A DNA stretch of 53,774 bases from an uncultured Planctomycetales bacterium (GTDB lineage Bacteria; Omnitrophota; Gorgyraeia; Gygaellales; Profunditerraquicolaceae): assembly GCA_964354585.1 (NCBI GenBank), contig CAYHAI010000102.1, forward strand, positions 1 through 53,774. The letters run 5' to 3'. A model generated the notes under the pieces. The model searched no databases. It saw nothing but the letters and a program-made list of their open reading frames with translations, and was not told the origin of the DNA. Numbering within the stretch: position 1 is the stretch's first letter; each line of letters starts with the position of its first letter. Of the stretch, positions 2 to 53,773 are shown piece by piece. The position numbers and the translations under genes were made by a program.

Positions 2-3000
2 ACATTCTGTAGTATTGCGCCTCTGCCACGATAGGGGCCAAGGCATTGGCCGACTATATAATATAGGTAACCCGGCTGCGGCAAAAGCCAGGCCCCGACC
101 AGCCACGAGAGAGGTAATCCGACTTAAATCCTGCCGCAACCGAGATAAAATCACCCGCCCCAAAACCACAGCTAAATAAATCGCGCCTATCAGACCTACG
201 AGGTATAGAAAGGTTAATCCTGCGCTGCCGGCAACAGGGCTGCATCCGCCGCAGAGGAGCGAAATTAAGGCTAAGGGCAAGAGGATGGAGTGGGATGATT
301 TAAGTTGTTTTACAGCTATTGTTCTGCGATAATGCCATTTAAATGCGGCGTATAATAAAGAGGTTACAAAAACTCCGACTGCAAGAGCATCAAACAATTT
401 GTTTAAGAATTTGCTTGTTTTCTTTGGCGGTATAATCCGGTCAAATTCAGCCTGCACCCATTCTGGTTGATTCTTGACATCCTCGCCTATTAGTATCTTT
501 AATATTTTTGCCACCGGACGTCGCCTCTCTTCATCTGCGGTAAAATTAGGCGAATAGGCTATGGAAACCGATTTGATTTGGCCTTTAAGGCGTGGGTAAA
601 AATCACCAAACTTATCAATAAGCTCCTGATGCCTTACTTCTTGCTTCGGGTTTTGATTAAGGGGATAATAGTTAGCATAGGCACCTAATTCTTTAAGTAG
701 CAAAACCTCCCTATTTTCACTCGGAAGTCTCGCACCAGCATAATTTGCATCCACGCTTAAGAATACTTCGGCATCGCCTACAATTTTGGCGATTGCATCG
801 GGATTATCCGAACTCATAATGTGAAGGATGACTATCCTCTTGTCCTCACTAAGATTAATTTGCGTCTCCGGATAACTTAAGGCGTGGAAATTTCTATAAA
901 TCAGCTTATCTTCGTTACTATCAAGAACTACCTCAAAGACATAATCACCATAGATAGATTTTGAGTCACTTTTTATTGCTTCTTGGGGAACAACCCAAAT
1001 CATCTCCATTGCTCCATGGTTATGACTAAAAAGACGTTCATGAAAAAGCGGCAATATCCATCGGCATATGTCCATTTCGCTAGCCGAACCTACCATACCC
1101 TTAAAGGTGAAGGACTCTCCTAAAAATGCCAATGATAGTAGGGATTCCTCGAACGGCGCTCTTAAGTCAGGATAGGCGTCCCAATTGATAAGAATCTTTT
1201 TACGATGGGAGTCAAAAGTCTTCTGCCAATGGGGGTCAACAAGCAGTGACCCCAAAAGACTACATTTTGCATGGGCATAAGTCATATTATCTCCCTGTGT
1301 CAAGCGAATGGGAGCTCCTTCAGTTGTCCGAGCAGGGGCCTGATTATTTTGATTTATTACCTCTAACTCCCTATATAATGGCTCATACCTTTCTAATAAT
1401 TGCTGGGAGAGGACAATATCTTTAGCCAGCCTTGAATCTTCTTCTTCCCAGCTTTCTTGAAAAGACCCAATCTGCGGGAACCCTCCATGGTATACTATAA
1501 AGAATCCTTTATTTCGAACTTTGTTATTTTGATTAACAAAAGTTACAGCAATATTTATTACCTGCAGACTACCAAAGATCTTTACTATAAATGGAGGGAG
1601 CTGCTCTATTGCAGTAAGCCATTTGGCTTTAGCTAAATCTGAATTATCTAAAAACATTGCTGCCTCAGCCCAATCACTCATATTCAGCGCATGAATAAAG
1701 TTCTTCCAGATGACGTATTTATCGTCTGTCTCTTTAATCTTGATACCCTGCTCTTCAAATAAGGACTGAATAAAGTCACCAAGGGTTTTCTTTTCTTTGC
1801 GCATTCTTTCTAATGCTTCTTCAACCTTTTGCATGTATATATCTCTAGGTATTATATGCCTAGAAAGACGGTTTTCTAGTCTAGAAATAATTATCCGTTT
1901 TATAATGAAATAAACAAACAGCCAAAATCCTATTATTACCGTAAGAACTTGTTTTGTAGTAATCCCGACCTTAAAAGAATCTATAATAGTTTTCTGTTGT
2001 TCTCTTCCTATTCCTTTTATCTTGGCGTCCCGCAACACTCTCTGTAATTCATCACGGCTACGATAAGGTCTATGAGCATTCAGCCATTTGGCCAGCTCAT
2101 TTATTGCTGGCTTATCCAAGCCTTCTATATTAAGCTTCTTTAAGTGGCGCCTAAGATCACCTTTTGTCGCGATATTAATATTAAAAGTTTCGGCTTTCTC
2201 CCCTCTATGGCTATCGTTTCGCTTTTCCCCAGATGTTTTTCCATCGCCATGAAATGCTGCGGCGGCTAATAAAGGGGATGTTTTCTTGATTGCTGTGGAC
2301 AACTTCTCTACTTCGGTACTGTTGGTGAGTTTGCGAGTAGACGAGTCTGAGCGTGGCTGAGGGCTCTTTTGGAAAACGATAACCGTGTCGTAAATCTTGG
2401 ACGTCTCATCTATGTAAGTAATATAACCACTTTGATTTTGCTTAAAACGTCCGTCTTCTCCCACATGACCGGCAAAAACATTCCATTTACCTTCTTGCTT
2501 TTTAACAACTTTTTGCAAATTCCGCATTAACTTTGCATTATCTTCGTCTTGTTGCATCACAATCCTTATCAATTCATTTAATTCCATTGGCTGAGGCAAA
2601 CTCCATCCTACTTGCCGTAAGGATGTTAGCGGATAGACTAAAATTACTTGTCCTCCAGGCTCAACCAGGTCAAAAATTTGTTCAACCCATTCTTGCGATA
2701 AATCCTTTACCCAAGGAGCCACATTCTGCAGTCTAATGGTTCCAACTTTCCCAAGAACTGTTTTTCTAGACATTGTTCTAACGTCCAAGTCAAGTATTTG
2801 AATATTATCTAAATTCAATACCCGCGTAAGCGTATGCCAAAAACGTATGACATAAGGAGAAATATCAGTAAGTAAAATTGGACGTTTGGGTGAACACTTT
2901 AATATGTCTGGCAAATAATCTTCGAAATTGGTACCGGTGGCAAGATCAACATAGGCGTACTCAGAAGTACTCACCGCAGACTTAGGCTTCGTGTAATAAG

Positions 3001-6000
3001 CCAATTTACGACCTATGGCTATCTGGTCAAAGTCGCTCAGCCCCTTCTCTGATTGCTTTATATTAGAACATTGCATGATTTTCTCGACCAAACCAACCAT
3101 CCGGTTATTCTGCAAAATCTGTTCCACGTGACGAAGTGCTTCCGGCATAAAACGTATGCCTACAATCAGGTAAGGAGCGCTTCTTAATTTATCTACGATA
3201 AGCTGACTTCTCCACACCTCTTCCTTGGAATTCATCATGTCTGCATAGACTTCAGCCACATAATTTGCAAAAACAACATCCGGGTTGCTGTTTATCTGTT
3301 CCATAAAATCTCTTTCCTCAGGATAGACCGCTAAAAATTGCCGGGTAAGCTCTTGGTTTAAAGCGTCCTTTTCGGTTTTTATTTGGGCTCGCTGAGACAC
3401 CGGTAATATCTTTGCTATAGGATATATAGCCGCAGCAGCCCCTGCTCCTAATAACCATGCGAAAAGCTCTCTGCGGGTTATGCCCACCCTAAATGCATCC
3501 GCAATGGCTTCTTGATGAAGTTTTTTAAATCCACTTATTCCCGTCCCCTGTAATGCTTTTCTGAAGGCCTCAGAATTACGATAAGGTCTATGTTCAAAAA
3601 TCCATTGAGCGAGTCGCTCTTTAGTTTCTCTATCCAATTCCACCAATGGAACGAGATTCTGTAAATGTTGTTTAAGTATGTCTAATCCTGCACGATTAAT
3701 ATTAGGGAGCTTAACTTTCTTCTTACGGCTATCGCTTCGTGAAGCTTCTACAAGCATCATCACTATCGTATGAGGCGTATTTTTGTTTGGTGATAAAGTT
3801 GTAAGTCTATCTCTACGATTAACTCTGGCTAAGGCAACAGATTGGGATAACCTAGATAAGAGCCACCAGATTAAGAATAAACCAAATCCCAAAGCTACCC
3901 ACACCCCCATAATAGGGCCGGGAAGACCTGGGGTTATACCTATATATATTAAAGTTAAAGTGGCTGCGGCAAGAGCCACCAGACCCTGACCAGCCACGAG
4001 AGAGATAATCCGACTTAAATCCTGCCGCAACCGAATCAACATCTGCCTCATCTTATCCCCAAGCCTTGTAAACCACTTAGGCAAAAGCAAGAATCCGCTA
4101 TTTTTAAGACTGTTGCTTGAGGATTTATCCTTTGGAGTATCGCGAAAACGGTCGCTGTCCCTATTTTTATTTTCAGGGATATTTTTGGTTTGGGGGTCGG
4201 TTCGCCAATGAACGGTTATCTTAGGCAGATTATGGATTTTGCGCATCATCATCTCAATATTGATATAAATTCTCACTGCCATTTTTGTCGCGCCCCAGAT
4301 AAGGAAGGCAAAGAGGTATTTAGTATCTCTTAATTTATAAATATTTATAAAACCATTGCGTAAAGTTCTCCACACCGTCTGCCAAAATGACCTATGAATA
4401 ATCTGCCATTTAGGGCCAAATAAATATTCTAATAAGTGGGAGTTATACTCAAATCTGGTTGCTCTAATGATGTGCCTTAATAATGTACTTGTGGATTTAA
4501 CATATACCTTGGCTCTTTTATCAATATGGGTTCGGTGGAAAGGATGTTGGGCTTTGCTATCAATAAAGAAAGCCGAAAGATATGTATCAGTTGAAATTGC
4601 AAAAGAAGGTAGCCCCGGATAACTCTCAGCATAAAACACGGTATGGGCTCCAAAGGGATAAAATATTCCGCTTCTGCTTCTCATAAAAGACGTTAATCTT
4701 TCCCAAGGATGGCTTCCTTTGAAAAACTCAATATCTGCGCCAACCAAACTTATTTTTCTGCTTTGAAGTAAACTTTCAACGCCAAAAGATAGGGCTCCTT
4801 CAGAAAATCTGACATCATCATCTAAGAAAGTGACAATATCGCTCTTGTTGCTCTTCGCAAATTCAACTAATGCATTCATGGCATTATTCTTGCCCTTCAT
4901 CGGTAAATCAATTACTACTAAAGGAACGCCAGGCAAAGACTCCAACCATCGCCTTTGATAATTTTCAATTAAACTCTGTCTTATCTGTCCTCTTTTTTCC
5001 GCATCAAGACCATTCACGCAAACCGCCACGGTTATCTGTCTTTCTTTAAAGCGGAGTAATTCCACCTCAAGATGTTCCAGTGTATCAATAATGCAGGGGT
5101 GGTTGGTGGGTATGGCGATAAGTATAGAATGCGGGTAGTCTATTGTGGCAGGTGATAATATTTCTCTTTGCCTTTCAGGCGAGAGGAGCTCATCAACATC
5201 AGTATAAATTGGCCCCAAATATTCTTGGCAAGGCATCTCTCTTTCGCTTCCATCTGACAAGTATATTCTTGCAGATACCTTTTTGCCAAAATAGGAATGG
5301 GCCACAAGAGGAAAATAAATTCCCATCCTGCAAGGCCGGTAAGAAACTTTTGATGGATTATTTTCTTTTCCTCTCCAGATTACTTTCACCTCTTGCGGAG
5401 GCGCTCTACCTCGATATGCTTCCAAACCCTCTGCTAAAAGAATATCTAAATTGGTAAAGCGCAATCTCATCAAAGAGCTTTCATATACCACTACTTCCGG
5501 ACTACCATAAGCATCAAGGCCGGTGACGATAATCTTAAACCGTATTTCTTCTGCGGGGATGTTCAGGCCCTTTACTAACGCATCAGCTTGAGGATGCTCT
5601 TTTATGAAGTCTAATTGTGAATAGGAAACCGAGTTTTCTTTAGAAATTAACTGGCAGGTTAAGCGATAATTACCCGCAGGCAGTGAAGAAATTTTTACGC
5701 CAACTTCTAAGTCTTTTGCCTCGGCGATTAAAGATACCCTAATTGGCGGATACGAAAGATTAATCAGATGGCGCAATCTCTTCAGAGTATATTTAAATAA
5801 AGAATGCGCAGGTAAATAAATCTCAATTATATCTTCTTCTTCAATTATTTGACCTTTAACCGCTTCGGGTTTATCAATTCGTTTATCACTATCCACAATC
5901 CTTACGCCCTTTCTAATCAGCTCTTCTGTCTTTAAGTGCGCCGGGCCAAGATAAGCGAGAATAAACCCAATCACCGCAATAATCCATTGTTTGAAGTAAA

Positions 6001-9000
6001 TACCACCGATGGCAAAAGCCAGACTACCAAAAATGGCCACCTTACTCCAGAACATTGCCTTTTCCTCTCCCCGCCTTGTTTTTATATATCCTTTGAGAAT
6101 CTGCCCGCCGTCAGTAGGATATACGGGTAAAAGATTAAAAGTAGCGACAGCTATGTTTGTGTACAAAAGACTCAAAATAATATTCCTGATTACCTGATAA
6201 GTATAGTTAGGTTCGAGGCTGTAGTCCTTTATATAATTTACTATTTCGGCTCCAGTATAAAGAGATAAAAATAGCATAGCCAAGAATAAACTCGCTATTG
6301 GCCCAGCCCAAAGAACGCTTGCTCTTTGCGGATGGTCAAAAAGGTTGACCTCAAAGAATTCTATAGGTCCAATGGCTGTTACCAGAACGCGCCTGGTCTT
6401 CACTCCATTGCGCCTGGCTTCCCAGACATGGGCAAATGCGTGTATCCCCACCGAAAGTAAAAGACCGATGTAGAGCGAAATGACAAACCAGGGTAGATTA
6501 CCTTTCTTAATAAGGTAATCTAAGATTAGCGGCGCTAATATCATTGACCAATGAATCTCTATCGGCGCGCCAAAAAGTGAGCCTGCCTTTAAGGAAATCG
6601 ATTTATGGTGCTCTACCACTTCTGTTGCTGGGAATAGAGTTATCTCGTTACTTATGCGCATAAGACGGATTAAAAGAAAGTAACCGACAATTGCTGCCAC
6701 GATAGGCAAAGTAACAGAAGAGCTCAATATACCTTCTACTGCCTGAGGTAGAACCCCCAGTATTATCAGCCCTAAACCCATAACCCCGGCTGCAACCTCA
6801 GGTAGAATCAAACCTTTCTTGCCTGTGTTTATCCTTTCCTTTCTCCTAAACTCTACCCACAATCTCCACGCCTCTGGAGGTTTTATGGATGGCTCGTCAG
6901 GAAAGGCAAGATAACTATTATTTCCTGAACGAAGAGGTATGGCGTGGTCTTTCACCTCTTTTATGCTGGCTTCCAGGTCTTCTTCAGTCATCAAAATAGG
7001 AGATAGTTTTATTATTTCATTGCTTGCACATTGCAGACGTCGTTCTAAGGCTAATATGTCCTTGCTGCCCTGAACACTTCCCTTTAAAATGTCAAAAAGG
7101 ACCTTGGCAATTGTAAAACAGGTTATCCTCTTACGCGCCGATTGCCAGTCAATTGCCCCTGAGTTCAAATACTCATCCACGAAACACTGCAGAGCCCCTA
7201 ATAACTCAGCAGTCTTTTCTGTTTTGGTTTTGATGGGTCCGGCCTTAGCGACTTTTACCTCTATGGGTTTAGATACTTCGGATTTAACCACCCTAGGTTT
7301 AGCCACTTCTGATTTAGCCACCTCAGATTTGCTGATTGCTTCAGGTTTAACTTTTTCTGCGCTTGGTTTATCAAAATGCTTCGGTGCTGTAGCCGCAATT
7401 GGTCTACTTTTTCTTTCAATTGCTGAGGGTTCTATCTTCGGTTTCTGTTCTGAAATTTCCCGTGGACTATCTTCTCTTACAGGCTTTCTCTTCGTTTCCT
7501 CTGCAGAAATTATCTTTAAATCTGGGTGGGGTGGACAGTCTGCGTTCATAAAGATATAGTGTGCAAGCTGGTGGATGGTCATTTTAGAATCAACCTGTTC
7601 TTGCATTATTTTTAGAAGGTCAGCCAAGGTCATTTCACCTTTTAGCTGGCTTATAATCTGTGCTTTCTTAGCATTTATTAAGGCTACCTTTTCTTCTTCT
7701 ACTATTCTTTCCCGTTGCCGTTCTGAAATTATCTCTAAATCTGGATGGGATGGACAGCGCCCACTAGAGAGATAGCGTTTGAGTTGAGCAAGTGTCATAT
7801 TAGGGTCAACTTTTTCTTGCATTTTATCCAACAACTCAGAGTGGGTCATCTTGCCTTTTTGCTGGGTTATAACCTCGGCTTTTTTAGTATACAAATCAGC
7901 TCTTTCTACATCTGTCATTCTTGCTTTCCACCAATTTAATCCCTGATGAGATTGCATACTTGGAATAAGCCTGCTCGCAGTCTCAGCTATCTTTGCATAT
8001 TTTCCTATCGTGGGATCTGGATCCTTGGTTAAGGCAAGCAAGTCGTCTTTCTCTAATCCTGACTCTAAAATCATCTGCACAATACCGCTTTGACGCGCCG
8101 AGAATCGTGCCATCCTGATAATTTTAGCCCTAAGTATTTGCAATCTTTGTCCCTTAGGGTTTAGTGCAACCATGGGTAGGATACTGGCAAGATATAAACT
8201 ACTCAAAAGTTTATCCGGCAATCCGCCACTTATACCTGTAGCAGCCCACCAATCCCGCAGCGCCTGGATAAAGTCTATTAAATGAGGGCTAAAATAGAGA
8301 ACCAATCCTGCGCTAAACATCAAGACAAATGGTGCGCTGCGCCAAATGAATGTTTTAAATTGTGAGGTGAAAATTCCTCGTTCGGTTTTACAGAAAACTT
8401 TATGGAATCCTAATAAAGCTAAGAGAATCAACACAAAAACAGCCATTGCATTAAATAGTAAAGAATGCAGCAAGATATATGGCACCATAATGGGATAATA
8501 GCGGCTTCTTTTTAATAGTTCAAAATTTGCATATATCTCCCATTGCGCCCTTAACCAAATTCGCCAGAAGAGGGTATTTTTCTGCTCGAGTATTGATTGC
8601 GTGGCTTCATCATAAGCAAAACCTAATGATCTTCTGATAATCAAATATCTTAATAACTGTCTAAAAATTAATACCTCCCGGGTAAAAAGTATTCTTTTTG
8701 CTACTTTGTCTTTTCCATTTTGTAATATCAACGTATAGGATTTAGCAGCTAAAAGGCCGAATCCTTTAACTTTTTGTAATGCCCTTAACAATGCAGCGTC
8801 TTTTCTTTGAACAGCCTTTTGTATTATATTGTCTGCCTCTTCAATGATTCTTTTTTCTGCCTTAAGTTGCGTTAAGCCAAAGGAATTAGAAAATGGAAAT
8901 AAACCCGCAAGAGATATAAATACGTAAAAAGATACTAAGAAGAAAATTAAATATTGAATGAATCTCTCATAATGACCAGAGAAAAATGGTCGTTTATAAA

Positions 9001-12000
9001 AGTAAATACCCGTTAGCGTAAACGAATTAATTGTTGCAGCAAATACAACATAGGCAAAAATGCTGTAGATTCTCTTTACAATATTTGTTTTTTTCTCAGG
9101 CAAGGTGGTTTTGACCAGTAAGGGTTTATTGATTACTTTTTCGCATGGGATAGCCTTGGTAAGTTTAGACGAATTTACATGCGCTGAATACAACTGTAGC
9201 GCATTGAAAAACATTCCTAAAATAATTATAATTACTATTGATTTTAATGTTAATTGTGCAAGATTAATAGCGGAAGTCTTGCCCACTGCGCTAGCAACAT
9301 CCGGCAATCCGCCGCTTATACCTGTAGCCGCCCACCAATGGCGCAGGGATTGGATAAACCCACTGATTTGCGGCCAGTGATTAAGCGTCCATACTCCCAA
9401 CACCGCCGCCACTGCCACCGCTGCCAGAGTCAAAATCATCACCCTGCCTGGGCGGGAATTGGGCGGCGATTTTCCTTCGAGGATATCGAGGTTTAAGAGC
9501 CCACCTTGTTGGGCATCGGAAGGAATTCTACCCTCCATCTGTTTAAGGATATATTTTATGGCTGGCGCAAGTTTCTGGAGCGCTTTATTACGAATCTGTC
9601 TAACGCGTTCTTTGGTAACATTTAATCTCCCCTTTCCTTTTTTTCCATTTTCTTTTTTTCCAATTTCTTCAAATGTCTCTTCTTGCCAATAATAGTAATA
9701 AATTACTATTCTTTCAGACTGGGTTAATCTGGCTTTGTGAATAGCTCTTGCAAATAAGTCTAAGTCTTCCAGGCACAACAATTCCTTATCTATATCCGCA
9801 GGCTCTGGGAAGGTTTCCAGGTTTGCCTCTCTAAAGAAAGCTACAGGTAAAGTGCTAGGATATTGCCTCGGGCTTAATTGATGGCTAAGGAATACTCTTC
9901 TAATTTTCGGCCAAATCTTTTTTGCCTTTGGACAGGCCTCTAAAAGCCGGGCATAAATATGCGGCGCCTTGTCCAACAACTCATCAAGCGTAACTGTATT
10001 TACATCAACATCCAAATAGCGTAAGGCATCAAGTATTTTGTTTCTTGTAACCATTCTTCGCCGGGCAATCTTCGCTATTACATCAGATTGATAATCACGC
10101 TCCAGAAGCATATCTACTGCCGCCGGCCAGCCGCCTAATTCACCTAATTCAGAGAAAATCATTTCCGCGCGCTTCACCAATAGTTGGTCAAAAGGCAATT
10201 CAGGCAGCCCAAAGGAAAGAGGAATAAGGTCTCCTCTTCTTTGCGCAAATAGTCTGCGCATTTCTCTGCGGAAGAACTCCAAGATTTCCCAAAGCTTGGC
10301 TTGCTTTCCAGGATCGGACCAACAATCTTTAGCAAATTCCGGCCAGCTCATCCCTCCAGGCAATCTTGGCCAAAAACGCCAAGGCGCTCTCTTAAAATGC
10401 GCTAACTGTCTTAATTTCTTATCCGGGGTAAAACAATATTTAACTTTTCCGTATTCGGGATGGCCTGTATCAACTACAAGAAACCATTGACCATTTTCAA
10501 AAATTGGCTTCTCCACCCTGGCTTTATGGCCTTTGGCGATTTTGGTAAGGTGGATTTCTACTCCTCCCATTCCAGAATATCCGTGCCTACCAAATTCTAT
10601 TTCAAAACCGTCTCCGCTAAAAGGCGGTTTCTGGGGATTATTATATATACCCTTTTTTGCAAACTGCGTGATTTGTCTTTTCTTTGCTGAAGCCACATCA
10701 GCCAAAACCTCGTCTATAATCTGAATGGCCTCTGGATATTTTTCTTGGTACTCTTTTCTTGTCTCTTGTTCGGCTTGGCAATGAGATTTTTTCTGGATTA
10801 CTTCTTTGTATTCATGGCGGGAAATATATTCTAAGACTAATTCGAGGATGCGCTGAATTTGCTGAGGAAATCTCCTTTTTATTTTTAAACTAAGCGTAAA
10901 AGGAAAACCTGGCGAGAAGATAACCCTTAAACAAGCTCCATCATATCTGCCAAAGGCGTATTTATCTGGCAGGTCTTTTGGCGGCGGGGCTCGGGAATCA
11001 AAAGATTTTATCACATAGAATATAACCGGTTTTCCTCCAACTTCTATCTTGAGCTTATTGTATTTATTTAAGCACCTAATTTTGATAGTTTTATCCTTTA
11101 TTCCTTTGGTCAGATAGCGCAAGCCTTCCTTTTTGAGGTTGCCCAAGAAGCCGAATCCTCCATCTATCCCGCCGCTGGGGTGGCCGAAGGAGGATATCTT
11201 ATTTAAAATTAAGGCTAATCGTTCGTCATACTTTTTTTCTAAAGCCTCAAACTTGTCTGGTTCTTTCTTTCGTAAGTCTGCTTCAAGCAAAAGCTCCTCT
11301 TGGCTATAATCTCTAATATATTCGGCCACGGCTTTCAGGATCTCCTCAGGATAATCTCCTTCTACCAACACATCATATTCACTTCCCGCCTCTCCTTTAG
11401 GCATAATGGCTAATCTAGTTAAGGCACCTAGATAACGGCGGGTATAGATATCAAGAATCTCCTTTGGATCTGTTGAGTCAAATTTCTCTCTGTAATGTAA
11501 ACCAAATAGAACGTAACACGCATTAGCAGTTACTGCATTTAAATTAGAAAAACCTTCTCTCCTTTTCTTTGCCCCTATTAACTCTGCTATTGTCTCAAAA
11601 TCTATCCCCGGATTAATAGTATCAGGGTTAATATAAATTTTAATCCCTGTTGTCTCATAAAGTTGTATAATTAGTCTGGACAAAATTACGACAGGAGATT
11701 GATGAAATCCTTTTGGTAAATTACATTGCACCTTATTTATGCGGTAAAAGCCTTTTCCGCTTTTATTTTTATACACCTCTAAACACCTCTTGGCAAACGC
11801 CTCATTCTCTTTGTCTGACCTGCCCAGGCGGACGCCAGCTTCGTGGATAAGGGTGATGAGGAGCTCTTTTTTGTTTTCGGGCTCAAGCAGGGATTCGCCA
11901 GGGGTAGTATCAAGATGAAGCACTTCATAGTTAGTTTGAGCTTCTTCTCTTACTACACCATAGAGATTAGGCATTGGCCCGGCGCGGCTTTCAATTGCGG

Positions 12001-42000: not shown

Positions 42001-45000
42001 CGCCGAGGGTTTGGGCAATTTTTTCGCCTGCCAACGGCAGCCTAATCGTAAATGTCGTGCCTTTGCCCTCTTCTGACTCCGCCGCAATGGTGCCGTTGTT
42101 TTTCTGGACTAATTCTCTGACAATTCCTAAGCCAAGGCCGTGGCCTTCGCCTTTACTGGAGAAAACAGCCCTGCCGCTGTTAAAGGCATCTACCTTATCT
42201 TGAGGCATACCGCTTCCCGTATCGCTGATCCTGATTTCAACAGCGTCTTCTGCGCTGCGAGTTTTTACTGTTACTGTGCCTTCGCTTTTCGACATAGCCT
42301 CGCAGGCGTTTCTGAGAAGGTTAATGAAAACTCTAAACAAGTCGCCTGCGTTTGTTTTTAGCAAAGATCCCCCTTGGGCATAATCTCTATGGATTTGAAC
42401 TTTCGCAAAAAGAGCTACTTCCGCTACCAAAGCGGCATCTAGCAACTCCTTGGGGTCAACCTCTTTTTCTTCTTGAGCAAATAGTTCTAAGGTGTTGGAC
42501 AAAATTAAAGATATGGCCTTAGTTCCATATTCAAAGAACCAAGCATCTTGAGCTATTTCTGGTTCTGGAAGACGATGCACTTCCCTACTTATTCTTGCAA
42601 TCTCTGAGTTTAATAAAGCGATTCTCTCAGGAGTGAGTATTTCTATCAATTCTTTAGCTGCCTCTACATAAGAAGATACATTTGGCCCTAAGTCGTCCTC
42701 GTTGTCGCATATTGTGTAAGCAGCATCCCTTAACTGCATTACTACCTCTTTACATCGTGTACAAAACGCCTTAATATTATCATCTGCGGTGTCTGATTTA
42801 ATCCAGCCTACGTTACCAGTCAGTATATTTAGCATGTTCATCATGTCGTGATGTATGGCCCCTAGTCTTCTTGCCAAACCGCCATTGTTTTGCGGTCCTA
42901 TCTCCCTCAAATCAACTCCGGCGGGTTGGGCTTGTCTTTTATCGCTACCGGGCGATTCAGTAATTTTCTTCAAAACAAGGATTCCTCTTGGAGTAAAATT
43001 GAGGTTGCCTTCGTCTATTCCCAAAAATTGCTTAGAAACCAAAGAAAAACCCGATTTTCTAAACAACCCCTCCCACTCCTCTATGTTTTTGAACGTAAAT
43101 GGGGCCTGCATATTTAGTCTCCCAAGCACGCTATTGTTTAACCAATCGCAAAAAGCTAAAACAGATTTTCTTTGACTATCACTAACTTTTAAGAATTTTG
43201 TTAACAGCCCACTTTTGTAAATAGGCTCAATTTCATTAGAAAATGTATCTTCCAGCACAATTAGTATGCCGCCCATTTTTAAGGCACGGTTTATATCGTT
43301 TAAAATATTTTCTTGGCCGCCTCTTTCAATATGATGAGACACATAGCTCAATACTGCCGTATCAACTATACCTGTATCTATTGGTACCTTATCTTTTTGT
43401 TGCTGCAACCTAAAATCTACTGAAGGATTAGATATGCTGAGTCTATTTTCCAAATCTGTGGCAATAACTTTTTCTACTTGGGTGCTGTTTTTCAGTATTA
43501 TTTCTGATAATAGGCCGTTTCCACAACCTATGTCGGCAACTAAAGAACCTGCTATAAACTCGCGAATTAGCCCAAACTTGTGTTCAGCTCGCCCTTTAGG
43601 ATCATATTTTTCAAATATTGAATTAAACTCTGAATTTAAAACGTACCTCTTAATAATAGAAAAAGCCTCTTCTTGATCCTCGTTTGTACACTGCTCTGAC
43701 AAAACATCTAACAAGCCTTTTATGGCAGGTTGTGAAATTCCAAGGCGTTCGAAACTATCGTAAAATGCAGCAGTTAAGAACGCCTTTGAAGCTGGATCGG
43801 AAAAAACTACAAGAGGGTTTATTGGACGCTCTGAGTCCGTCTTATCTTCTCCTTTTGAAGATCTGCCGCTCCCAAAAAGCCGAAACTCGCCATTCTCATA
43901 GAAAAGTTGGCGGGTTACGGCAAACCAGATTGCTTGCTTAATCTCTATTCTAATTTTTGGCATATCTGGAGCCATTTCATTTATAGCCACTATTTCTTCT
44001 ACGCCTTTAACTTGGAGCTGATGCAGCTTGACCAGGGCCTGCTCTTTTTTCATTAATTCATTTGCCGCCTGCAAAAGTTTCGGTAAAACAGGTTGTAGGC
44101 CTGCTTCCAAGTGAGAAATATATTGGAAGTGGAAAGGCTGGCGTGCAAGTTGCCTACCCAGGACTTGGCCAAATTTTTCTAGGCTAAGCCCTAATGCTTC
44201 GCGGACCTTCTTTAGTCTCTGGCCGGCTTTTTCTCGATACACTCGCCCTGCAGCAATCAAAAGCTTAGGTGGAACAACAAATCTTCCTGTCTCTAAGTCC
44301 CCAATATAATCTTCAGTGTAGGGTTTCTTGCGGTAAGGTTTCTTGCGCCTAAGTTGTGCTGCCAGCACTTGACCAAATTCTCTCTGGCTAAGGCCTAATA
44401 ATTCACGGATTGCCTTAATTCTTAAACCAGCTTGTTCTCGGTATAATTGCTTGGCAGCATGCAAAAGCTTCAATGGAACAACAGGTCTTCCTGCTGCTAT
44501 TTTAATAATATGTTTGGAAAAGGGGTTGCGCTCAAGCTGCTCACCCATGACCTTACCAAATTCTTCCCAGCTAAATCCTAACCGTAGGCGGATGTCATTG
44601 AGTTGCTTGCCCAATTTTTTTTGATTCTTCCGATACACTTGCTCTGCGGCATCCAGAAACTTCTGCAAAAACTTTATGGAGGCAGCAAATCTCCCTATCT
44701 CTAATTGAGCAATACAACCCCTGCTGAAAGGCCTATGGCGCTTAAGTTCTCTAGCAATAACTTTACCGAATTGTGTCTGTTCCATTCCTAACGCCCGGCG
44801 GATATCCCCTAATTTCTGGCCGACCCTCTTTCGATTCTCTTCAAATACTTGCTCTGCGGCATAAAGAAACCGCGGCGGAACAAAGTCTAAACCTTTTTCT
44901 AAACGAGAAATATACGCCCTGGTGTAAGGTTTCTTGCGTCCAAGTTTCTGAGCAAGGGCCCGGCCAAAATCTTCTAAGCTAAATCTTAGCGCCTGACGGA

Positions 45001-48000
45001 AAGCCCTTAATCTCTGGCCAGCCCTGTCTCGATACAACTGCTCTGCCGCTTTCAGAAGCCCTGCTGAAATATGACAGCCTCCTGCAAGATAGGAAACGAG
45101 TGCTTCGTTGAATTCTTCCTGAGTGAAGCCTAACAATCTACGGATTTCCTTTAGCCACTGGCCAGCTGTCTGAGCATTCACCACCTTCCCCTCAAAATAC
45201 GCCCACTCTTCCATAATCCTTCTGGCGGCTTCCTGTATAGCACATTCTATCCTTTCCCTTGCATTTATTGTGTAAGCGATAGAAAGGCCTGTTAACGGAT
45301 TCTTTTTCTCCCATTTCTTTAAGGTGGGCAAGGCTTCCCGAGCCTCCTTACCCATATCTCCTAACTTATTTAACATAAATTGGGCGGTCAAGTCATCAAC
45401 TTGAGGAATCTGGTCAAGAAGATAGCTTACTATATCCTTATATTTAATCTCACAGAGGAATTCAATAATACTGTCGCAGAAGCCTCCTTCGGTTTCTTCT
45501 CTATCTTTAAGTCTCTTAAACAATAAAGGAGCTGCCTGTTGCTTTACTTTCTCCTGAGCACCAGTAACTATTGCTATTGAACTATAACGAATATTATTAT
45601 CCTTATGCTCAATGGCGCTTATAAGCTCAGGAGTTACCTCTTCTAATAAATTGCCTATAGCGCTTGATAAGATTCCCGGATCCATATGTTCAGGTTGAAA
45701 CAGATGCTTAAATAATTCTCTTAACGCTGTGTCTCTATCATAAATACCAATCTGGCCTAAGGCTATTGCTGCTCTTGTCTGCTTACTTGTGCTACCAGTC
45801 TTCAGTACCTCAATAAATTCAGGTATTGCTCGGGCAGAGGCTTTTCCGCATTCTCGAAGAGAACTGGCAAAGCTCATCGTATTGGAAATGGGCTCTCTTT
45901 CATCCAAAATCCATCTGACTAAATCAGAAATATAGCCTCTGGTAACTTTGGGTCGGATAAGAACAGGCCCCTGTTGGTACGTACCCATTAGCTGTTGATA
46001 TTTTCCTTTCTCAGTGAGTCCGGGTATACGTAGCGTATTATTTATCCCTATATAAACTCCCCTTACGGTCGATAAACTTCGCATAACTTTATTAAGCAGT
46101 GACAGATTATCTTTCATGGATTTAATAAGCCCATCGGTTAACTTTTTAAAACTGAAAGCATCGTTTACAGCACAGGATATATCTCTTGAAATTATTCTTA
46201 TGTAAGGCCTTAAGGTTTCTTCAATGGCATCTAAAAGAAGAGCGCGATTTTGATTTTGTTCGTGGATTATTCGCTGCTCTAAGTCAAATAAGGCTTCTTC
46301 GGATGCCTTAAGTAAATCAGCCATATGAGTATCAATTTGTTGCAGTAGTCCTTTTTGATTTTCAGAGAGAGCTTGAGCAGATAACTGCTCTATTTTCAGT
46401 CCCACTTCCTTCATAATAGGTTTTATTCTTTTATGTAAAACTCGCGCCTCTCTCCTTACTCTCCAAACAGGCATCTCTTTTGCAACCGGAATTTCTTCTT
46501 TTTTCTCTCTGCCTATCTTTACAGGCAAACAGATAGTAAAGTCAGAACCTGGGGTGATACGCCTGCCCAACGCTATCCTCTCAACTATCCAAAGGCCCCA
46601 ATCTAATGCTGAAGCAACACTTAACATGAGGTCTTTCTGGTCTGCGCTATAACCATAATTTGGCTCACTTGAAGAAAATCCAGACAATGCCTTGTATGGC
46701 TGCCCGAGTAGCAACCATAAATTTTCCAAAGTCCCCGCTTGGCATCTTACCTCATAGATATCAAATGACTCCTGGAGCAATGTCCCTGAGGATTGCATTA
46801 AGTCAAATACATACTTTACCTCTTCCTTAGTAAAATGCTCGCCTTGGGCAGCAAGTTCTCTTAAGGCGTCTCTTAACTTACTCACTTCTTTATGGCACAT
46901 TGTATAAAGCCGATGGACATACTTCAGTCCTAACCTTCTTACTTCTTCCTCGCAAGACCTACAATACTCCGCGAAATCAGATATATCAGTTTTATCTTTA
47001 CCTACTTCTTGGATTTGTTCTTGGGTTAACGACTCCACCGCAATTGTGCCGCCGGCATCTTTTATAGCATACCATGCCTCGGTTAATCCTAAACCCGTGC
47101 CGCCTTCCCGCTGAGAAACGTTGAAGTTAAATATAAGGGGTCTCTGCATTATTGGGTCTATTTTTAATAATTCTTGAGGAATGCCTGGTCCGTTATCTGA
47201 AATAGTTATCTTGACTAAGCCTTTTTCTTCGACTAAAGTAACTATAACTTTTGCTTCTTCACCTTGTTCCGCATTGGCAAAATGTACAGCGTTATTTATG
47301 ATGTTGTCTATAGCGCTCTTAAGGGTTAGGCGATTTGATGAGGTTTCGCATGACGCGGCAATATTGTTTACAACTGTGACGTATCGCCTTTTTTGACATA
47401 TCTCAATAATTAATTCAACGATATCCTGGGCAGCATGAGGGGACACAGCAGTTGCTAGTTCTATACGGCTCTGCAATATCTCTATAATTTTACTTATATA
47501 GTTGGCTATTTTTTCAAATTGACTTACAAATAAATATTGCTTGGTTGAGGCGTCTCCCTGATAACAATAATCAAAATGCTTGCGCTTTTGTTCTATTTCG
47601 GTTATTTGCTTGCTTAGTCCCTCTGCAACTTGCTGTATGCTTTTTATATACTCTTGAGCCTCATCGGCTGTTAACTTGCCTTGCCTTGAAGATTCCCCCC
47701 CTTTTAAAATAATTTCTATTAGATTGCGCATTATATTGCCTGAAAAATTTTTGTCCACCTTGCTTAAATCTTCTCTCAGCTGTCCGGTAGATTCATTCAA
47801 ATTTAAAATTATATTCGCCAATTTCTGTTCAATGTTTGCTGAATATTGGAAAATATCGAATATTTTTCTGCCATGCCTCAAGCTTCTTATCGCCACTCCT
47901 GCGCGTTCTATTTTCTCTCTTTCCTCCGCCAGCGGCTGCCGGGCGAGGGCACCGATAAAGTCATGAGTAATAATACATATGGGGCTATCTGCATCTGTAT

Positions 48001-51000
48001 GGAGCGTATCTGATACGCCGCCAAAATTCGTTTTAGTTATTTGGCGATATCCTTCCTTAACAATATATCCCAAATAGATACGTAATTTTCTTTCTTCGCC
48101 GGGCTTCAAACGTAGAAAAATAAGGCCATTGGGTTTCAATAAGGAAAGTATGGGCGATCCCTGCTGCATTTGCTCTATTAAGCTAATCTCATACGGCGCC
48201 ATAATAAAAACAACATCAAACCTTTGCTGGTTTTCTTTGCTCGAAGCAAACTCTATCACATTTTGTTTAATTACTTCAGGGAAATTTTCCGGATGACGTT
48301 CAAACACTAACTTATCCACACTCAAGAACTCTTGGAATAAGCCGGGGTATCTACATTGCATATTTCTAGCAAAGTTTCCGGGGCCGGAGTATAGATCTAC
48401 AGCCGTAATCTTCTTGTTCTCTCCAAACCATTTCCGAATAAGTTCAGCGAAGTTAGAAGAATCTTCTAAAATCTTTGCTCTTTCATCAGTAGAAAGAGAA
48501 ACAGAAGACCCTTTATTTATGAGTTGCTGCTGGTTAGTATGGTTATTAACAGAACTCCCATACGCATCGCCTCCTCCCACCACCCCCGCCATTGCCCAAT
48601 ACCCTGCTGAACCGCCCAATCCCCCTATCCCCAACGCTTGAGTAAGAGGACACGAGAGTGAAACATCGGCGGGATAGAAAGTTTGACCTTGACTTATTAA
48701 TCTATTTATTGTATATATAATTACAGAGGTGATAAAAATGAGACTCAAAATTGTCTTAGAGAAAGGCGAAGATGGATATATTGTTGCCAGTGTCCCCTCC
48801 TTACCCGGCTGCCACAGCCAAGGCAAAACCGAGAAAGAAGCGCTTAAAAATATCAAGGAGGCAATCCTCTTATATTTAGAACCTAACCCCAAAGATATCC
48901 GCCCCGCTTCTAACCATAAAGTCCTTAGTCTGGCAATATGAAACCACCCCTGCTTTCGGGTAACGAAATTATCCGCGCCTTCCTGCGCGCCGGATACTTT
49001 AGAGTTGACCAACGCGGCAGCCACGTCAAGCTTTTTAAACCCACCAAGCAGATTACCCTTATTATTCCCAACCACCGAGAAGTTGACCGCTGGACGCTTA
49101 AAGGCATTCTTAAAGATGCTGAAATATCCGTAGAAGAATTCCTGAAGCTTCTCAGATAACCTTCCAAAGTTCTCTTTCTGAGTCATTATCCCCGCCAAAA
49201 CCGCAGCTAACGCTAACACCCCAATAATACCCACCCAATAACTACCGCCCTGCCCGACCAAACCAAATCTGCCAAAACCCGCGGCAAAACAATCCTGGGC
49301 GCTGGCAAGAAGGATGCCGAAGATAAATAGGCCAAGCCCAAGACCCGATTTTGAAGGCCCTCCTGGGGTGTCCCTTGCCGACAATGCTTCTTGTAACTGC
49401 TTAAATTTATAATTCATTACTGCAAGAGATTTGCTAAGGTCTTGATCCATTAACCTGAGGAATCCCAGTCTACGATTGAGATTATCCTGATATCTATTCG
49501 AGAAATATTTGAAGGCTCCATAGGATAGGTAGGGAATAATTATTGGTAAAGAATAAGCAATAATTACAGGCGAAAAGGAAACATCAGGTGATAAACAATA
49601 GAGCCAGATAAAAAGAGGGGTGGCAATGACGGCAAATATAGTAAGTATGGATAATATCTTCTTGGCTATCTCATCTATCAAATATAGTTTATCTACCACT
49701 GCGCGTTTCTCAAGAAGCCTTTCCAGCAATTGCTTATTTTTCAGATATCGTGCAACCAGGCCATCTTCAACTGTCTCTTTAGTGACAATCCCGAAAACCC
49801 CAGCCAGGCAAATTCCGCTTACTGGATGCATCCGCTGTCCCAGCCAGCGCAAGATATCCCATACCTGGCTGATGAGGCCTGCTTTAATCAGAAGGATCCC
49901 TAAGGTTATTATTCCGCAAATCAATAAAGCAAGGGAAATAATAAAACCAGATAAGTAAAGCTCTATTTCTTTTCCTTCGCTAACCAACCTCTTATAATAC
50001 GCCAGGTTATCCTCCCTCTGAATTAATTCCTTAGCCGGGACAAATCCTGGAATGGACCTTTCCTTGCCTTTATACACCACCAGAAGACCACAGAACTGGC
50101 TATCACACCCTCGGTAAGCAATTCCCGTAGGTATTACCGTAAGTTTCGGCCGCTGCTTGCCCTGCGTCAATAATGTTTGCAGTCGGGCTAACTCCGCTTC
50201 CTCACTGAAATCATTATTTTTAAACTTTCCACCCGCAATTATCGTCATCGCCAGATTCGTTCCCCAGATTCCCGCTCCTGCCACACCCAAAAGCTGACTA
50301 ATTTGATGCATAAGCGCTGCCTCGCCGCGCAGGAGCGCATCCAGCAAGAGGCCAAGGGTGAGGGTGGCTGCAGCCAAGAAGATTAAAATTAAAACCGAGG
50401 CGCTGCCAGTTACTCGGTTAAATAAACCCTTGGCGACTGGCTTTGGCCACCTTTCAGAATGCTTTTTAATTATTGGCCCCCATAATTCCTTATAATCCTT
50501 AACTTCTTGCAAAATAAACCGGAGAGCCTCGTCAATCTGCTCCAATGCCTTAAGCATCTCTTGAGTTACCCCAGGGGATGCGCCTAGCCAGTTCTCACTC
50601 ACGGTACTAATGGTAATGGTAAAATCCAAAACGCTATATTTACCTTTTACTATTATCTGTCTATGTTTTAAGAGTGTACCTATAGGTAAATAATCTGCCT
50701 TTATTTCTTTTATGGTGCATTTTCCGATAGTTTGATTGATTTTAAGAGATTTAGGTGCGGCTTTGGCGGAGGTGTCTTGAGATGACGGCGCAGGTTCTTC
50801 TACCAATGATTTATACCTGGGGTCTTTGGCTAAAAGTTGCAAATAGGCATTGTATTTTTCATCTTTAGCTATTCTGATATTCTTGATAATCAGTTTCTCA
50901 AAGTTGCTTATATCTTTGGGTTCACCTTCTTTATTAAGCGAAGGTTCAAGAACCTCACTTAACCACTTTTCGTTAATTCTATCAACTGCTTTTCCATCGG

Positions 51001-53773: not shown

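Follow-up and report, generated by a model that had tools for sequence, protein, structure and literature searches.

Introduction

Genes of Omnitrophota are termed large when the ORF exceeds 30,000 bp and giant when it reaches at least 90,000 bp (West-Roberts et al., 2023, bioRxiv 10.1101/2023.11.21.568195). Such genes occur in Omnitrophota genomes and encode numerous transmembrane helices and a divergent SecA_DEAD / SecA preprotein-binding domain. The giants have an N-terminal region with a signal peptide and a C39 or S8 peptidase; cleavage by C39/S8 domains has been raised as a possibility, and proteomic support for end-to-end translation of the 10–150 kaa ORFs is thin (West-Roberts et al., 2023). 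The class 1 "multi-enzyme" giants (co-occurrence module 1) referred to below are those of Nielsen and Lui, who rely on Pyrodigal calls (Nielsen and Lui, 2026, bioRxiv 10.64898/2026.06.07.730766).

The stretch of DNA analysed here (the window; 53,774 nt) is open in one minus-strand frame over at least 53,772 bp, with both gene ends beyond the window, and so exceeds the 30,000-bp threshold for a large gene. The locus is like the "Archaeovorin" type and the class 1 multi-enzyme giants in having an ORF far above 30 kb, a transmembrane (TM) helix per ~350–400 residues, large unannotated stretches, fast mosaic evolution and Omnitrophota-only homologues, and it shares with them methyltransferase (PF08241), HATPase_c (PF02518), receiver, HEAT, peptidase, glycosyltransferase and PPDK-type domains. 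Unlike those giants, this fragment, from which the gene ends are missing, is without SecA_DEAD, C39/S8, NUDIX, glycoside hydrolase and dockerin domains. A further difference is that its opposite strand harbours nested protein-coding and tRNA genes, which neither West-Roberts et al. (2023) nor Nielsen and Lui (2026) mention.

Results

A minus-strand frame open across the window

A six-frame scan counted 0 TAA, TAG or TGA codons among the 17,924 codons of the minus frame that runs from 53773 to 2 (offset 1 of the reverse complement), against 572–1,452 stops in each of the remaining five frames, where the longest open runs span 106–173 codons. Because these other frames hold stops at ~6–8% per codon, chance is excluded as the source of a 17,924-codon open frame. 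The frame (2..53773, minus strand) is open at both window ends, and its coding signature is constant along the entire length, with GC1 > GC3 > GC2 and purines at ~0.61 of codon position 1. The original prediction, that the whole 53.8 kb are a stop-free internal portion of a giant gene with no fewer than 17,924 codons, in a window whose longest closed ORF has 162 aa, is thus borne out, and the search for an in-frame stop that it had proposed found none. Its assertion that all recognisable domains fall in the minus frame proved false: 14 plus-strand genes and one plus-strand tRNA gene lie inside that frame. The giant-gene core of the earlier interpretation therefore stands, whereas the picture of a simple one-strand gene does not, ~8% of the frame (~4.35 kb) being antisense to intact plus-strand genes and the tRNA gene.

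Plus-strand cassettes and a tRNA gene inside the frame

The 14 nested genes form seven two-gene cassettes of toxin-antitoxin type; 12 of the 14 have Pfam matches, nine of them above the gathering cut-off and the PIN matches below it. In the cassette at 48729..49159, which has a leaderless-type promoter, a HicB-like antitoxin (48729–48941) precedes a HicA toxin (48938–49159, 62 bits). A second cassette (39659..40259) pairs DUF7718 (39659–39988, 122 bits) with DUF5647 (39981–40259, 69 bits). DUF433 and the PIN-like DUF5615 are paired twice, at 37040..37655 (DUF433 37040–37306, 72 bits; DUF5615 37308–37655, 55 bits), with its own promoter and an AGGAGGT Shine-Dalgarno sequence, and at 20445..21043 (DUF433 20445–20687, 65 bits; DUF5615 20693–21043, 83 bits). 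The cassette at 25443..26134 joins DUF5678 (to 25730) to a retropepsin-like aspartyl protease (to 26134). Two paralogous cassettes each combine a small antitoxin-like ORF with a PIN-domain toxin, at 14714..15275 (ORF 14714–14881, toxin 14817–15275) and at 13376..13937 (ORF 13376–13540, toxin 13467/13524–13937).

Own promoters were predicted for the nested cassettes, and most protein cassettes have a Shine-Dalgarno site or a leaderless start. Judged from sequence, the nested pairs thus have the layout of type II toxin-antitoxin systems with their own promoter, and their products are predicted toxins and antitoxins. Five of the pairs, one HicB/HicA, two DUF433/DUF5615 and two small ORF/PIN, match recognised toxin-antitoxin pairings; DUF7718/DUF5647 and DUF5678/aspartyl protease appear toxin-antitoxin-like by layout only. 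Neither attC-like sites nor terminal inverted repeats were found at the cassette flanks, the window has no integrase, and the PIN cassette had no match in IMG/VR viral contigs.

A tRNA unit with anticodon GCU occupies 22530..22690 on the plus strand and consists of a promoter (TTGACA-17-TAACAT, 22530–22558), the tRNA (22567–22640, 64.9 bits) and a terminator formed by a hairpin and a T-run (22647–22690). Bacterial tRNA-Ser is of class II, its cloverleaf bearing a long variable arm. The tRNA(GCU) is well formed (74–77 nt) and lacks the long variable arm expected of bacterial tRNA-Ser, having instead a short 5-nt variable loop and a class I shape. Its exact anticodon plus T-arm pattern had no match, and a loose pattern retrieved class I tRNA(GCU)-like genes across many phyla, none of them close (top identity 77%). 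Beside it, at 22704..22815 on the plus strand, lies a second mini transcription unit to which no product is assigned, in which a promoter (TTGACA-17-TATACT, 11/12) is followed after ~60–70 nt by a terminator hairpin and T-run.

Selection on the nested genes and on frame openness

Purifying selection acts on the nested genes, which are intact: dN/dS is 0.11–0.32 in their own frame vs. 0.36–1.18 in the giant frame. Codon-usage likelihood likewise prefers the plus frames over the giant frame at the cassettes, and at the nested islands the giant frame is merely stop-free, not protein-optimised. The filler peptides that it encodes there (95–230 residues) are Ser/Phe-rich and Glu-poor, a composition that is not protein-like; one such antisense-encoded linker peptide reads GKITDRKREKRLPRFRFSLNDAPAGDR. 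In giant-frame numbering the eight linkers lie at aa 1539–1682, 4505–4705, 5373–5578, 9214–9444, 10320–10415, 10911–11110, 12833–13020 and 13279–13466.

Long antisense ORFs can arise in coding sequence, and the PIN matches fall under the Pfam gathering cut-off, so that the plus-strand ORFs might be read as decaying relics, or as fortuitous ORFs in a purely minus-coded gene. We give this very little credence: matches to Pfam are full-length (DUF7718 122 bits, DUF5615 83 bits, DUF433 72 bits, HicA 62 bits), canonical toxin-antitoxin pairs come with promoters and Shine-Dalgarno sites, dN/dS is lowest and codon usage favoured in the plus frame, and the tRNA scores 64.9 bits and has both promoter and terminator.

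The giant frame is kept open in one of two ways, depending on a nested gene's phase: by exclusion of the codons TTA, CTA and TCA, or by exclusion of the junctions Y|TA and T|CA. The three codons are absent from the 637 codons of the codon-aligned nested genes and occur 39 times among the 734 of the shifted ones (p = 1.9e-11); conversely, the junctions number 0/734 in the shifted genes vs. 29/637 in the aligned ones (p = 1.6e-10). Some 67 antisense stops would be expected in the nested genes and none is observed, a synonymous recoding test gave a summed log10 P of −14.4 or lower, and no nested gene occupies the costliest overlap phase. Openness persists at dS up to 2.6. Given this purging of codons and junctions from the nested genes, ribosomes presumably read the giant frame through.

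The zero counts of forbidden patterns partly restate that the frame is stop-free; the new information lies in how often such patterns occur in the other phase class (~5% per codon) and in the persistence of openness at high dS.

Relatives and integrity of the assembly

Named homologues of the PPDK_N-REC module (described below) and of other segments are all Candidatus Omnitrophota/Omnitrophica MAG proteins, and the 12 strong matches in GTDB representative genomes all belong to MAGs that are either Omnitrophota or labelled uncultured Planctomycetia. No stop occurs in the 6,091 codons of L026 (JGI contig Ga0315286_10000102), a relative from a separate metagenome; modules common to L026 and the window share 48–86% amino-acid identity at dN/dS of 0.29–0.47. 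L026 extends at least 2,347 codons upstream of the point matching the window start, a region in which no Pfam domain was found, and it repeats the nested-gene pattern, with nested cassettes from which stop-generating codons or junctions are excluded. The generality of the nested architecture is gauged from this one relative. Homologue taxonomy and the stop-free relative back the tentative link to Omnitrophota made in the original prediction and support a host of Omnitrophota type, a placement drawn from homologues, not from a marker gene in the window.

Stand-alone homologues of 2–3.7 kaa (L147, L148, L006, L007 and L010), judged by eye, held only junk-like antisense ORFs and no nested cassettes. 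A 1,600-aa query gave 0 of 8,000 word-sharing candidates at E ≤ 1e-5 and is suspected to have been too long for the word index; a 404-aa query found two homologous proteins only, and a single 600-aa protein found no related loci in the GTDB genomes.

The uncultured source and the two open ends invite the suspicion of a chimeric or collapsed metagenome assembly, or of chance, the true locus being an ordinary arrangement of genes on both strands. Gene callers do call nested genes normally on a short contig: contig L146 (1,035 nt) of the Logan assembly of run ERR4334731 has both DUF433 and DUF5615 called as genes. That same contig, however, is 100% identical to window positions 20147–21181 and covers one complete junction. 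Because the window has no long or near-identical DNA repeats (the longest is 300 nt at 92%, and the top identity is 96% over 75–91 nt), misassembly by repeat collapse is unlikely, and a divergent relative from another metagenome shows the same architecture. Together with 0 stops in 17,924 codons vs. 572–1,452 in the other frames and the absence, in phase-relevant patterns, of ~67 expected antisense stops, these observations make an artefact extremely improbable. An exact 50-mer of the window had no match in GTDB representative genomes, and exact matching of the nested proteins retrieved no contig other than the ~1-kb Logan one.

Sense-coded domains and modules

About 13 Pfam domain types occur in the giant frame, and no single type is dominant. 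The N-terminal part of the frame carries two histidine-kinase-type ATPase domains (aa ~2093–2254, 47012..47497; HATPase_c, aa 3765–3920, 42014..42481; these and all domain, module and hairpin coordinates in this and the next section are on the minus strand), an array of ~5 XRE-type HTH repeats with 86% amino-acid identity to L026 (aa 2819–3266, 43976..45319) and a SAM methyltransferase domain (aa 3412–3580, 43034..43540). Further on are a partial match to the Peptidase M48 (HtpX-like) motif region (aa 6207–6271, 34961..35155), an ABC1/UbiB atypical kinase domain (aa 7392–7585, 31019..31600), another methyltransferase domain (aa 8979–9091, 26501..26839), HEAT repeats (aa 9614–9674, 24752..24934) and a Rce1/CPBP intramembrane protease domain (aa 11363–11459, 19397..19687). 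A module of PPDK_N-like ATP-grasp and receiver repeats (PPDK_N-REC; aa ~11557–12770, 15464..19105) is 35–58% identical to stand-alone Omnitrophota proteins of 1.5–3 kaa and is followed by sigma-70 region 4 (aa 14681–14735, 9569..9733), a site-2-type Peptidase M50 (aa 15768–15920, 6014..6472) and a weak, partial match to glycosyltransferase family 2 (aa 16285–16371, 4661..4921).

Four copies of a module, here called E, recur in the second half. E1 (aa 9456–9594, 24992..25408) starts with D-L-A-R and is the first sense-coded domain past a cassette; E2 (aa 10442–10578, 22040..22450) starts with DPAR and has a TM segment before it; E3 and E4 lie at aa 11133–11272 (19958..20377) and aa 13490–13629 (12887..13306). 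Paralogous sense-coded modules have dN/dS of 0.27–0.66 in the giant frame, the lowest of the frames, and their plus frames carry stops, save for one 36-codon frame in the pair of hairpins B2 and B3 (see below).

A PDB sequence search returned only histidine-kinase matches for aa 1–5000 and none for aa 4500–9500, and an AlphaFold2 model of the E module from a four-sequence alignment was unusable (pLDDT 46.6). SecA_DEAD and the SecA preprotein-binding domain had no Pfam or NCBIfam match in the 17,924 residues, C39/S8, NUDIX, glycoside hydrolase and dockerin domains were not found in this fragment of a gene whose ends lie beyond the window, and internal lipobox-type signal peptides in the giant frame were not convincing.

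Transmembrane hairpins at the junctions

From hydropathy alone, 48–55 (~52) TM helices are predicted, many of them in conserved hairpins under protein-level selection; seven of the ~52 fall in antisense-encoded filler and are doubtful. Hairpin A1 (aa 1452–1531, 49181..49420) adjoins, in the DNA, the 3' end of the HicBA cassette, and A2 (aa 4427–4503, 40265..40495) that of the DUF7718/DUF5647 cassette. B1 (aa 9168–9235, 26069..26272) adjoins or overlaps the end of the aspartyl-protease cassette, B2 (aa 10272–10331, 22781..22960) adjoins the tRNA island and B3 (aa 12762–12820, 15314..15490) the PIN cassette at 14714..15275, and C1 (aa 10862–10911, 21041..21190) begins at the stop codon of the plus-strand DUF5615 gene at 20693–21043. 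C2 and D3 (aa 17826–17908, 50..298), at the C-terminal window edge, have no cargo between them. In all, a conserved TM hairpin precedes seven of the eight cargo islands, and a TM segment with a conserved D-P/L-A-R motif comes after several of them.

This arrangement is compatible with a self-processing polyprotein, in which one chain would be cut at the TM-hairpin junctions by the M48, M50 and CPBP/Rce1-like proteases, functional units of ~0.3–4.5 kaa being released and the filler discarded. Three membrane-protease domains are indeed present in the giant frame, the PPDK_N-REC module occurs on its own elsewhere and ends right where hairpin B begins, the filler peptides are of non-protein-like composition, and cleavage, by C39/S8 domains, has been considered for these proteins (West-Roberts et al., 2023). 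The M48 and GT2 matches are partial, however, and DPAR is also present in relatives that have no TM segment before it, and we regard such processing as possible but doubtful.

Unit starts were also examined as sites of internal initiation, which was rejected: no start codon with a Shine-Dalgarno sequence was found in the giant frame downstream of any cassette. Terminator-like sites were not in excess.

The same result bears on the idea of a co-directional operon whose fusion is functionless and which is stop-free only for anti-polarity, ribosomes shielding a transcript of more than 54 kb from Rho and from head-on promoters. Openness is selected while filler sequence is barely constrained, the units resemble stand-alone genes, and the predicted nested promoters do oppose the giant transcript. 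Yet the units could not be made separately, because there are no start codons with Shine-Dalgarno sequences at their starts; polarity in ordinary operons is overcome by translational coupling, stops included; and the junctions carry conserved TM hairpins and E modules, which are features at the level of the protein. This explanation thus appears unlikely.

Discussion

A probable mosaic giant gene read through its nested cassettes

The locus is probably a real, translated, membrane-anchored giant gene of Omnitrophota type, Archaeovorin-like, that runs antisense through autonomous plus-strand units which are kept stop-free and which ribosomes read through. The gene would be a mosaic composed of nine or more sense-coded units, of which several appear to open with a TM segment and a DPAR E module, followed by regulatory or enzymatic domains; most units would close with a conserved two-helix TM hairpin, after which the frame passes antisense through plus-strand units. 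Because only translation reads codons, ribosomes would have to traverse the junctions, and the primary product would therefore be a single polypeptide whose units are linked by filler peptides. Only antisense insertions may survive, because a terminator in sense orientation would cut the giant transcript short. In a giant gene that is prone to deletion, the cassettes could act as addiction modules or regulate by antisense, and the membrane proteases encoded within it may cleave the chain at TM-hairpin junctions; both the function of the protein and its cutting after synthesis are matters that we infer. A self-processing polyprotein would refine this explanation and does not exclude it.

A tentative extension, which we hold to be rather improbable, is that Omnitrophota giant genes in general are in-frame mosaics in which autonomous antisense cassettes (toxin-antitoxin pairs, tRNAs), recoded by phase to leave the giant strand stop-free, dock at TM hairpins. 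Cargo would then turn over from junction to junction and from lineage to lineage, the cassettes would guard the gene against deletion by addiction or tune it through antisense transcription, and the filler would be translated and afterwards removed by membrane proteases that the gene itself encodes.

For the question of whether Omnitrophota ORFs of 10–150 kaa are translated end to end, the window offers an answer from evolution that does not depend on expression data: the purging of stop-creating codons or codon junctions in 14 nested genes, which holds even where synonymous sites are saturated and recurs in a second lineage, is hard to explain without read-through. Giant ORFs can conceal independent genes and a tRNA, and some of their "unannotated" sequence and predicted TM helices is filler. 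Prodigal-type callers should not report such nested genes; Prodigal itself, which the 2023 study of West-Roberts and colleagues reportedly used, is not known to report fully nested opposite-strand genes. If the architecture is general, published giant-protein lengths, TM counts and "dark matter" fractions would include antisense filler, and nested genes would be systematically missed. The locus further provides an extensive case of coding on both strands, in which overlap phase supplies a clean internal control and which is of interest for the study of overlapping genes, and it identifies specific peptides and junctions as testable.

Comparison with known systems

The giant gene itself is of a known kind. 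Nested or antisense genes in giant ORFs had no relevant counterpart in the literature that could be searched, and the closest parallels come from other systems. Toxin-antitoxin cassettes are said, after work by Szekeres and colleagues in 2007, to stabilise chromosomal integron arrays; as here, several unrelated small toxin-antitoxin cassettes lie in one orientation, scattered over a long, deletion-prone array, and the cargo that varies at paralogous docking sites adds to the likeness. Unlike integron arrays, this locus has no attC site or integrase that could be found, and its cassettes have their own promoters and lie inside a coding frame. Rickettsia palindromic elements, reportedly described by Ogata and colleagues in 2000 as selfish DNA inserted in-frame in protein-coding genes, are similar in that foreign DNA sits within an ORF without disturbing the frame, and its translation adds a peptide that is tolerated. 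They are, however, short palindromes that do not code, whereas the cassettes found here are autonomous opposite-strand units of 0.3–0.7 kb with no terminal repeats found. The embedded antisense overlapping-gene candidates of E. coli (bioRxiv 10.1101/2020.11.18.388249) likewise show complete antisense overlap with two open frames, each being a small, poorly conserved ORF inside a normal gene; in the window, by contrast, the embedded genes are conserved and assigned to families, the "mother" frame is merely kept open, and 14 embedded genes share one ORF.

A Single Open Frame Across the Window

The giant frame, read on the minus strand from 53773 to 2, contains no TAA, TAG or TGA in 17,924 codons by six-frame stop scan, as the original prediction held. 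The other five frames carry 572–1,452 stops each, with longest open runs of 106–173 codons; no closed ORF exceeds 162 aa, again in agreement with that prediction. The giant-frame translation has an ordinary protein composition, and codon-position statistics are even along the frame (GC1 > GC3 > GC2; position 1 about 61% purine). DNA repeats in the window are scarce and short: the longest spans 300 nt (92% identity), and the most similar (96%) span 75–91 nt. At the protein level, internal repeats are no more than 79% identical over about 140 aa. These values make a collapsed repeat assembly unlikely. A contig from a separate assembly of run ERR4334731 (Logan ERR4334731_535141) matches window 20147–21181 at 100% identity. 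On this 1-kb contig a public gene caller gives DUF433 and DUF5615 as ordinary genes while the minus frame is open throughout; here the size of the contig determines which of two overlapping readings is annotated.

Base composition departs from the remainder of the window at about 28000–36000 (giant aa ~6000–8600), where G+C is 0.46–0.48 and GC3 0.47–0.54, against about 0.41 and 0.35–0.46 elsewhere; this segment, which contains M48 and ABC1 domains and no nested cassette, may be a unit of other origin. A 15/30-nt tandem repeat lies within the giant frame at 7266–7330, overlapped by a 151-aa low-complexity plus-strand ORF (7104–7559) that has a positive codon-usage score and no Pfam match.

Nested Antisense Cassettes

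A codon-usage likelihood profile reveals about 10 islands in which the best score belongs to a plus-strand frame and that of the giant frame is close to zero, and these islands contain intact plus-strand genes with recognizable domains; the earlier claim, which places all such domains in the minus frame, is thus incorrect. Besides a tRNA unit, the plus strand carries seven toxin-antitoxin-type cassettes with 14 nested protein genes in all: HicB/HicA (48729–49159), DUF7718/DUF5647 (39659–40259; 122 and 69 bits), DUF433/DUF5615 (37040–37655), DUF5678/aspartyl protease (25443–26134), a further DUF433/DUF5615 (20445–21043; 65 and 83 bits), and two paralogous small-ORF/PIN pairs, PIN_b (14714–15275) and PIN_a (13376–13937). 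The nested units occupy about 4.35 kb (8% of the window), every one on the strand opposite to the giant frame. Each cassette has a promoter of its own of the TTGAC(A/G/T)-17-TATxxT type, HicB/HicA having only TTATTA-16-TATAAT (9/12 matches), and a canonical Shine-Dalgarno (SD) site or leaderless-type start.

The tRNA gene (22567–22640, plus strand; 64.9 bits by Rfam scan; anticodon GCU by ARAGORN) has TTGACA-17-TAACAT ahead of it and an 11-bp hairpin with a T-run behind it (unit 22530–22690). Its anticodon belongs to a Ser codon family, yet it has a class I shape (74–77 nt, 5-nt variable loop), with discriminator G and without an encoded CCA. The D-loop GGA and C35-U36 would suit arginine-tRNA identity rules as well. 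Similar short tRNA(GCU) genes number at least 32, in many bacterial phyla (32 among the first 119 loose-pattern matches, on which ARAGORN called 33 tRNAs, one a tRNA-Ala); the closest among these first matches listed has 77% identity. Directly after the tRNA terminator lies a second promoter-terminator mini-unit (22704–22815, plus strand), whose TTGACA-17-TATACT promoter (11/12) is the top match in a 20-kb scan and whose 13-bp hairpin and T-run follow about 45 nt past the promoter. The mini-unit has no Rfam match; its layout could yield a ~60–70-nt transcript (sRNA or 20-aa peptide). The giant frame is open straight across both units.

Selection on Both Strands

When cassette pairs, paralogous or orthologous, are compared, the frame of the nested gene itself has the lowest dN/dS (0.11–0.32; one saturated pair was not computable), and the same columns read in the giant frame give 0.36–1.18. 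At the E modules and transmembrane (TM) hairpins, which are recurring segments of the giant frame, and at another repeat, the giant frame has the lowest dN/dS of the frames compared (0.27–0.66), and plus-strand frames contain stops except in one short case. The antisense cassettes are autonomous and under purifying selection; the sense-coded units are modular.

Nested genes occupy two overlap phases, each serving as control for the other. The seven codon-aligned genes (637 codons) contain no TTA, CTA or TCA, which are forbidden in that phase, and 29 Y·TA or T·CA junctions; the seven shifted by one base (734 codons) contain 39 such codons and none of the junctions, which are forbidden there (Fisher's exact tests, p = 1.9e-11 for codons and p = 1.6e-10 for junctions). 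About 67 antisense stops are expected in the nested genes and 0 are observed; TTA is frequent in this genome (36.5 per 1,000 codons of the giant frame). Synonymous recoding with giant-frame codon usage gave a summed log10 P ≤ −14.4, two genes having 0 stop-free outcomes in 3,000 trials. The third antisense phase, in which junctions that create stops (TT·A, CT·A, TC·A) are most frequent (about 9% per codon), is used by 0 of 18 nested genes (14 in the window and four in L026, a related JGI contig). The genes nested in L026 (DUF5615 twice, DUF433 and PIN) avoid the forbidden patterns by phase in the same way (p = 6e-5 and 5e-4), and homologous cassettes share an identical phase with the window in all three readable pairs (PIN, DUF5615_a/y, DUF5615_b/x). 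Zero forbidden patterns is a definitional consequence of a stop-free frame; the real added information is their background rate and an openness that survives saturating divergence, the frame being still open where dS of orthologous PIN genes is 2.6. One continuous frame is kept open under selection and, because only translation reads codons, this persistence is strong evidence that ribosomes cross the junctions.

Layout of the Giant Frame

Along the giant frame as it is read, seven of eight cargo islands come directly after a TM hairpin of one of four recurring types (A to D): A1 precedes HicBA, A2 DUF7718/DUF5647, B1 DUF5678/aspartyl protease, B2 the tRNA, C1 the DUF433/DUF5615 cassette at 20445–21043, B3 PIN_b and, with about 200 aa between, D1 PIN_a; the cassette at 37040–37655 has no adjoining hairpin. 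Cargo differs among paralogous hairpin types, and related cargo lies at other hairpin types in L026, which suggests cargo turnover at putative conserved docking sites. Behind four of the eight islands lies a hydrophobic segment, then an E module. All four E modules start with D-P/L-A-R (giant aa 9456, 10442, 11133, and 13490; window 25408, 22450, 20377, and 13306, minus strand), in three of four cases a few residues past the hydrophobic segment; the motif, which also opens E modules of two Omnitrophota fragments (P0040 and P0046), might mark a site of processing or recognition. An AlphaFold2 model of this module reached a pLDDT of 46.6, too low for use.

No SD site with start codon occurs in the giant frame from 40 codons before to 120 after any cassette end (24 occur elsewhere), so the units bear no sign of separate initiation. 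Linkers encoded antisense to cassettes are rich in Ser/Phe and poor in Glu, and seven hydropathy-predicted TM helices fall inside segments antisense to nested genes (giant aa 1675–1693, 4596–4614, 4676–4694, 9389–9432, 11105–11123, and 13349–13367). Should this hold widely, antisense by-products may be counted among the TM helices, and built into the topologies, published for giant proteins.

Relatives and Probable Module Exchange

An exhaustive HMMER search with aa 11100–12299 matched 186 representatives, about 40 of them with 40–55% identity to a ~1,200-aa module (aa 11557–12770); all named homologs are Candidatus Omnitrophota/Omnitrophica MAG proteins. A profile scan of GTDB representative genomes placed all 12 strong loci in Omnitrophota MAGs or MAGs labeled "uncultured Planctomycetia"; other members of the PVC group gave weak matches only. 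Many homologs are complete stand-alone genes (1.5–3.7 kaa) in ordinary contexts, e.g., adjoining rpsB-tsf-pyrH-frr, thus the giant holds modules known elsewhere as normal genes; inspection of the stand-alone homologs found no nested cassettes.

The PPDK_N-REC family to which the module belongs (15464–19105, minus strand; homologous loci L001, L004–L016, L147, and L148) was found in Omnitrophota-type MAGs only, both as stand-alone genes of 1.5–3.7 kaa and as part of the giant. It combines a PPDK_N-like ATP-grasp of about 490 aa (45–58% identity; GGK, D/E, and His residues invariant) with a variable number of receiver-like domains, an arrangement that could constitute an ATP-to-His-to-Asp phosphorelay without a classical histidine kinase.

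L026 (first 18,274 nt of the 58-kb contig Ga0315286_10000102, from one metagenome scan) includes one stop-free frame, 6,091 codons long and open where the contig begins. Modules common to L026 and the window share 48–86% aa identity (dN/dS 0.29–0.47), in partly different order: in L026 (7042–18105) the matches to aa 4122–4290, 2858–3260, and 1946–2253 follow one another in the opposite sequence. dS is smallest in the HTH array (0.14, at 86% aa identity) and largest in the N-terminal part (1.29). This spread and the differing order indicate mosaic, recombining evolution and point to probable recombination or module shuffling between lineages.

Proposed Mechanism

The primary product would be one polypeptide with filler linkers, a chain that the M48, M50, and CPBP proteases may process at membrane junctions. 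The exclusive antisense orientation (8/8 units, p ~0.004) may stem from truncation of the giant transcript by sense-oriented terminators. Cassettes may be addiction modules against deletion, cf. chromosomal integrons, or antisense regulators. No attC-like or terminal repeats were found at cassette flanks.

Comparison With Known Giant Genes

The nested architecture extends to one relative, L026. The 2023 study of Omnitrophota giant genes reportedly used Prodigal, which is not known to report opposite-strand genes lying fully within another gene. Gene calls of Nielsen and Lui (2026; bioRxiv 10.64898/2026.06.07.730766) came from Pyrodigal. Neither that paper nor West-Roberts et al. (2023) mentions nested genes, antisense genes or tRNAs within giant ORFs, and full-text searches of the literature for a nested-antisense architecture found nothing comparable.

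By Pfam and NCBIfam, the giant frame contains two histidine-kinase-type ATPase domains, an XRE-type HTH array of about five repeats, several SAM methyltransferases, peptidase M48, ABC1/UbiB kinase, HEAT repeats, a Rce1/CPBP intramembrane protease, PPDK_N ATP-grasp followed by receiver-like repeats, sigma-70 region 4, peptidase M50, and a weak GT2 match; SecA_DEAD, C39/S8, NUDIX, and glycoside hydrolase had no match in this fragment, both gene ends lying outside the window. About 50 TM helices are predicted by hydropathy, many paired into conserved two-helix hairpins. Omnitrophota giant proteins have numerous TM helices, and the domains of "Archaeovorin" include methyltransferases, peptidases, glycosyltransferases, HEAT repeats, and PPDK-type domains (West-Roberts et al., 2023; bioRxiv 10.1101/2023.11.21.568195). 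The giant frame agrees with these proteins in both TM helices and domain set, and as an ORF it adds one more member to an already known class.
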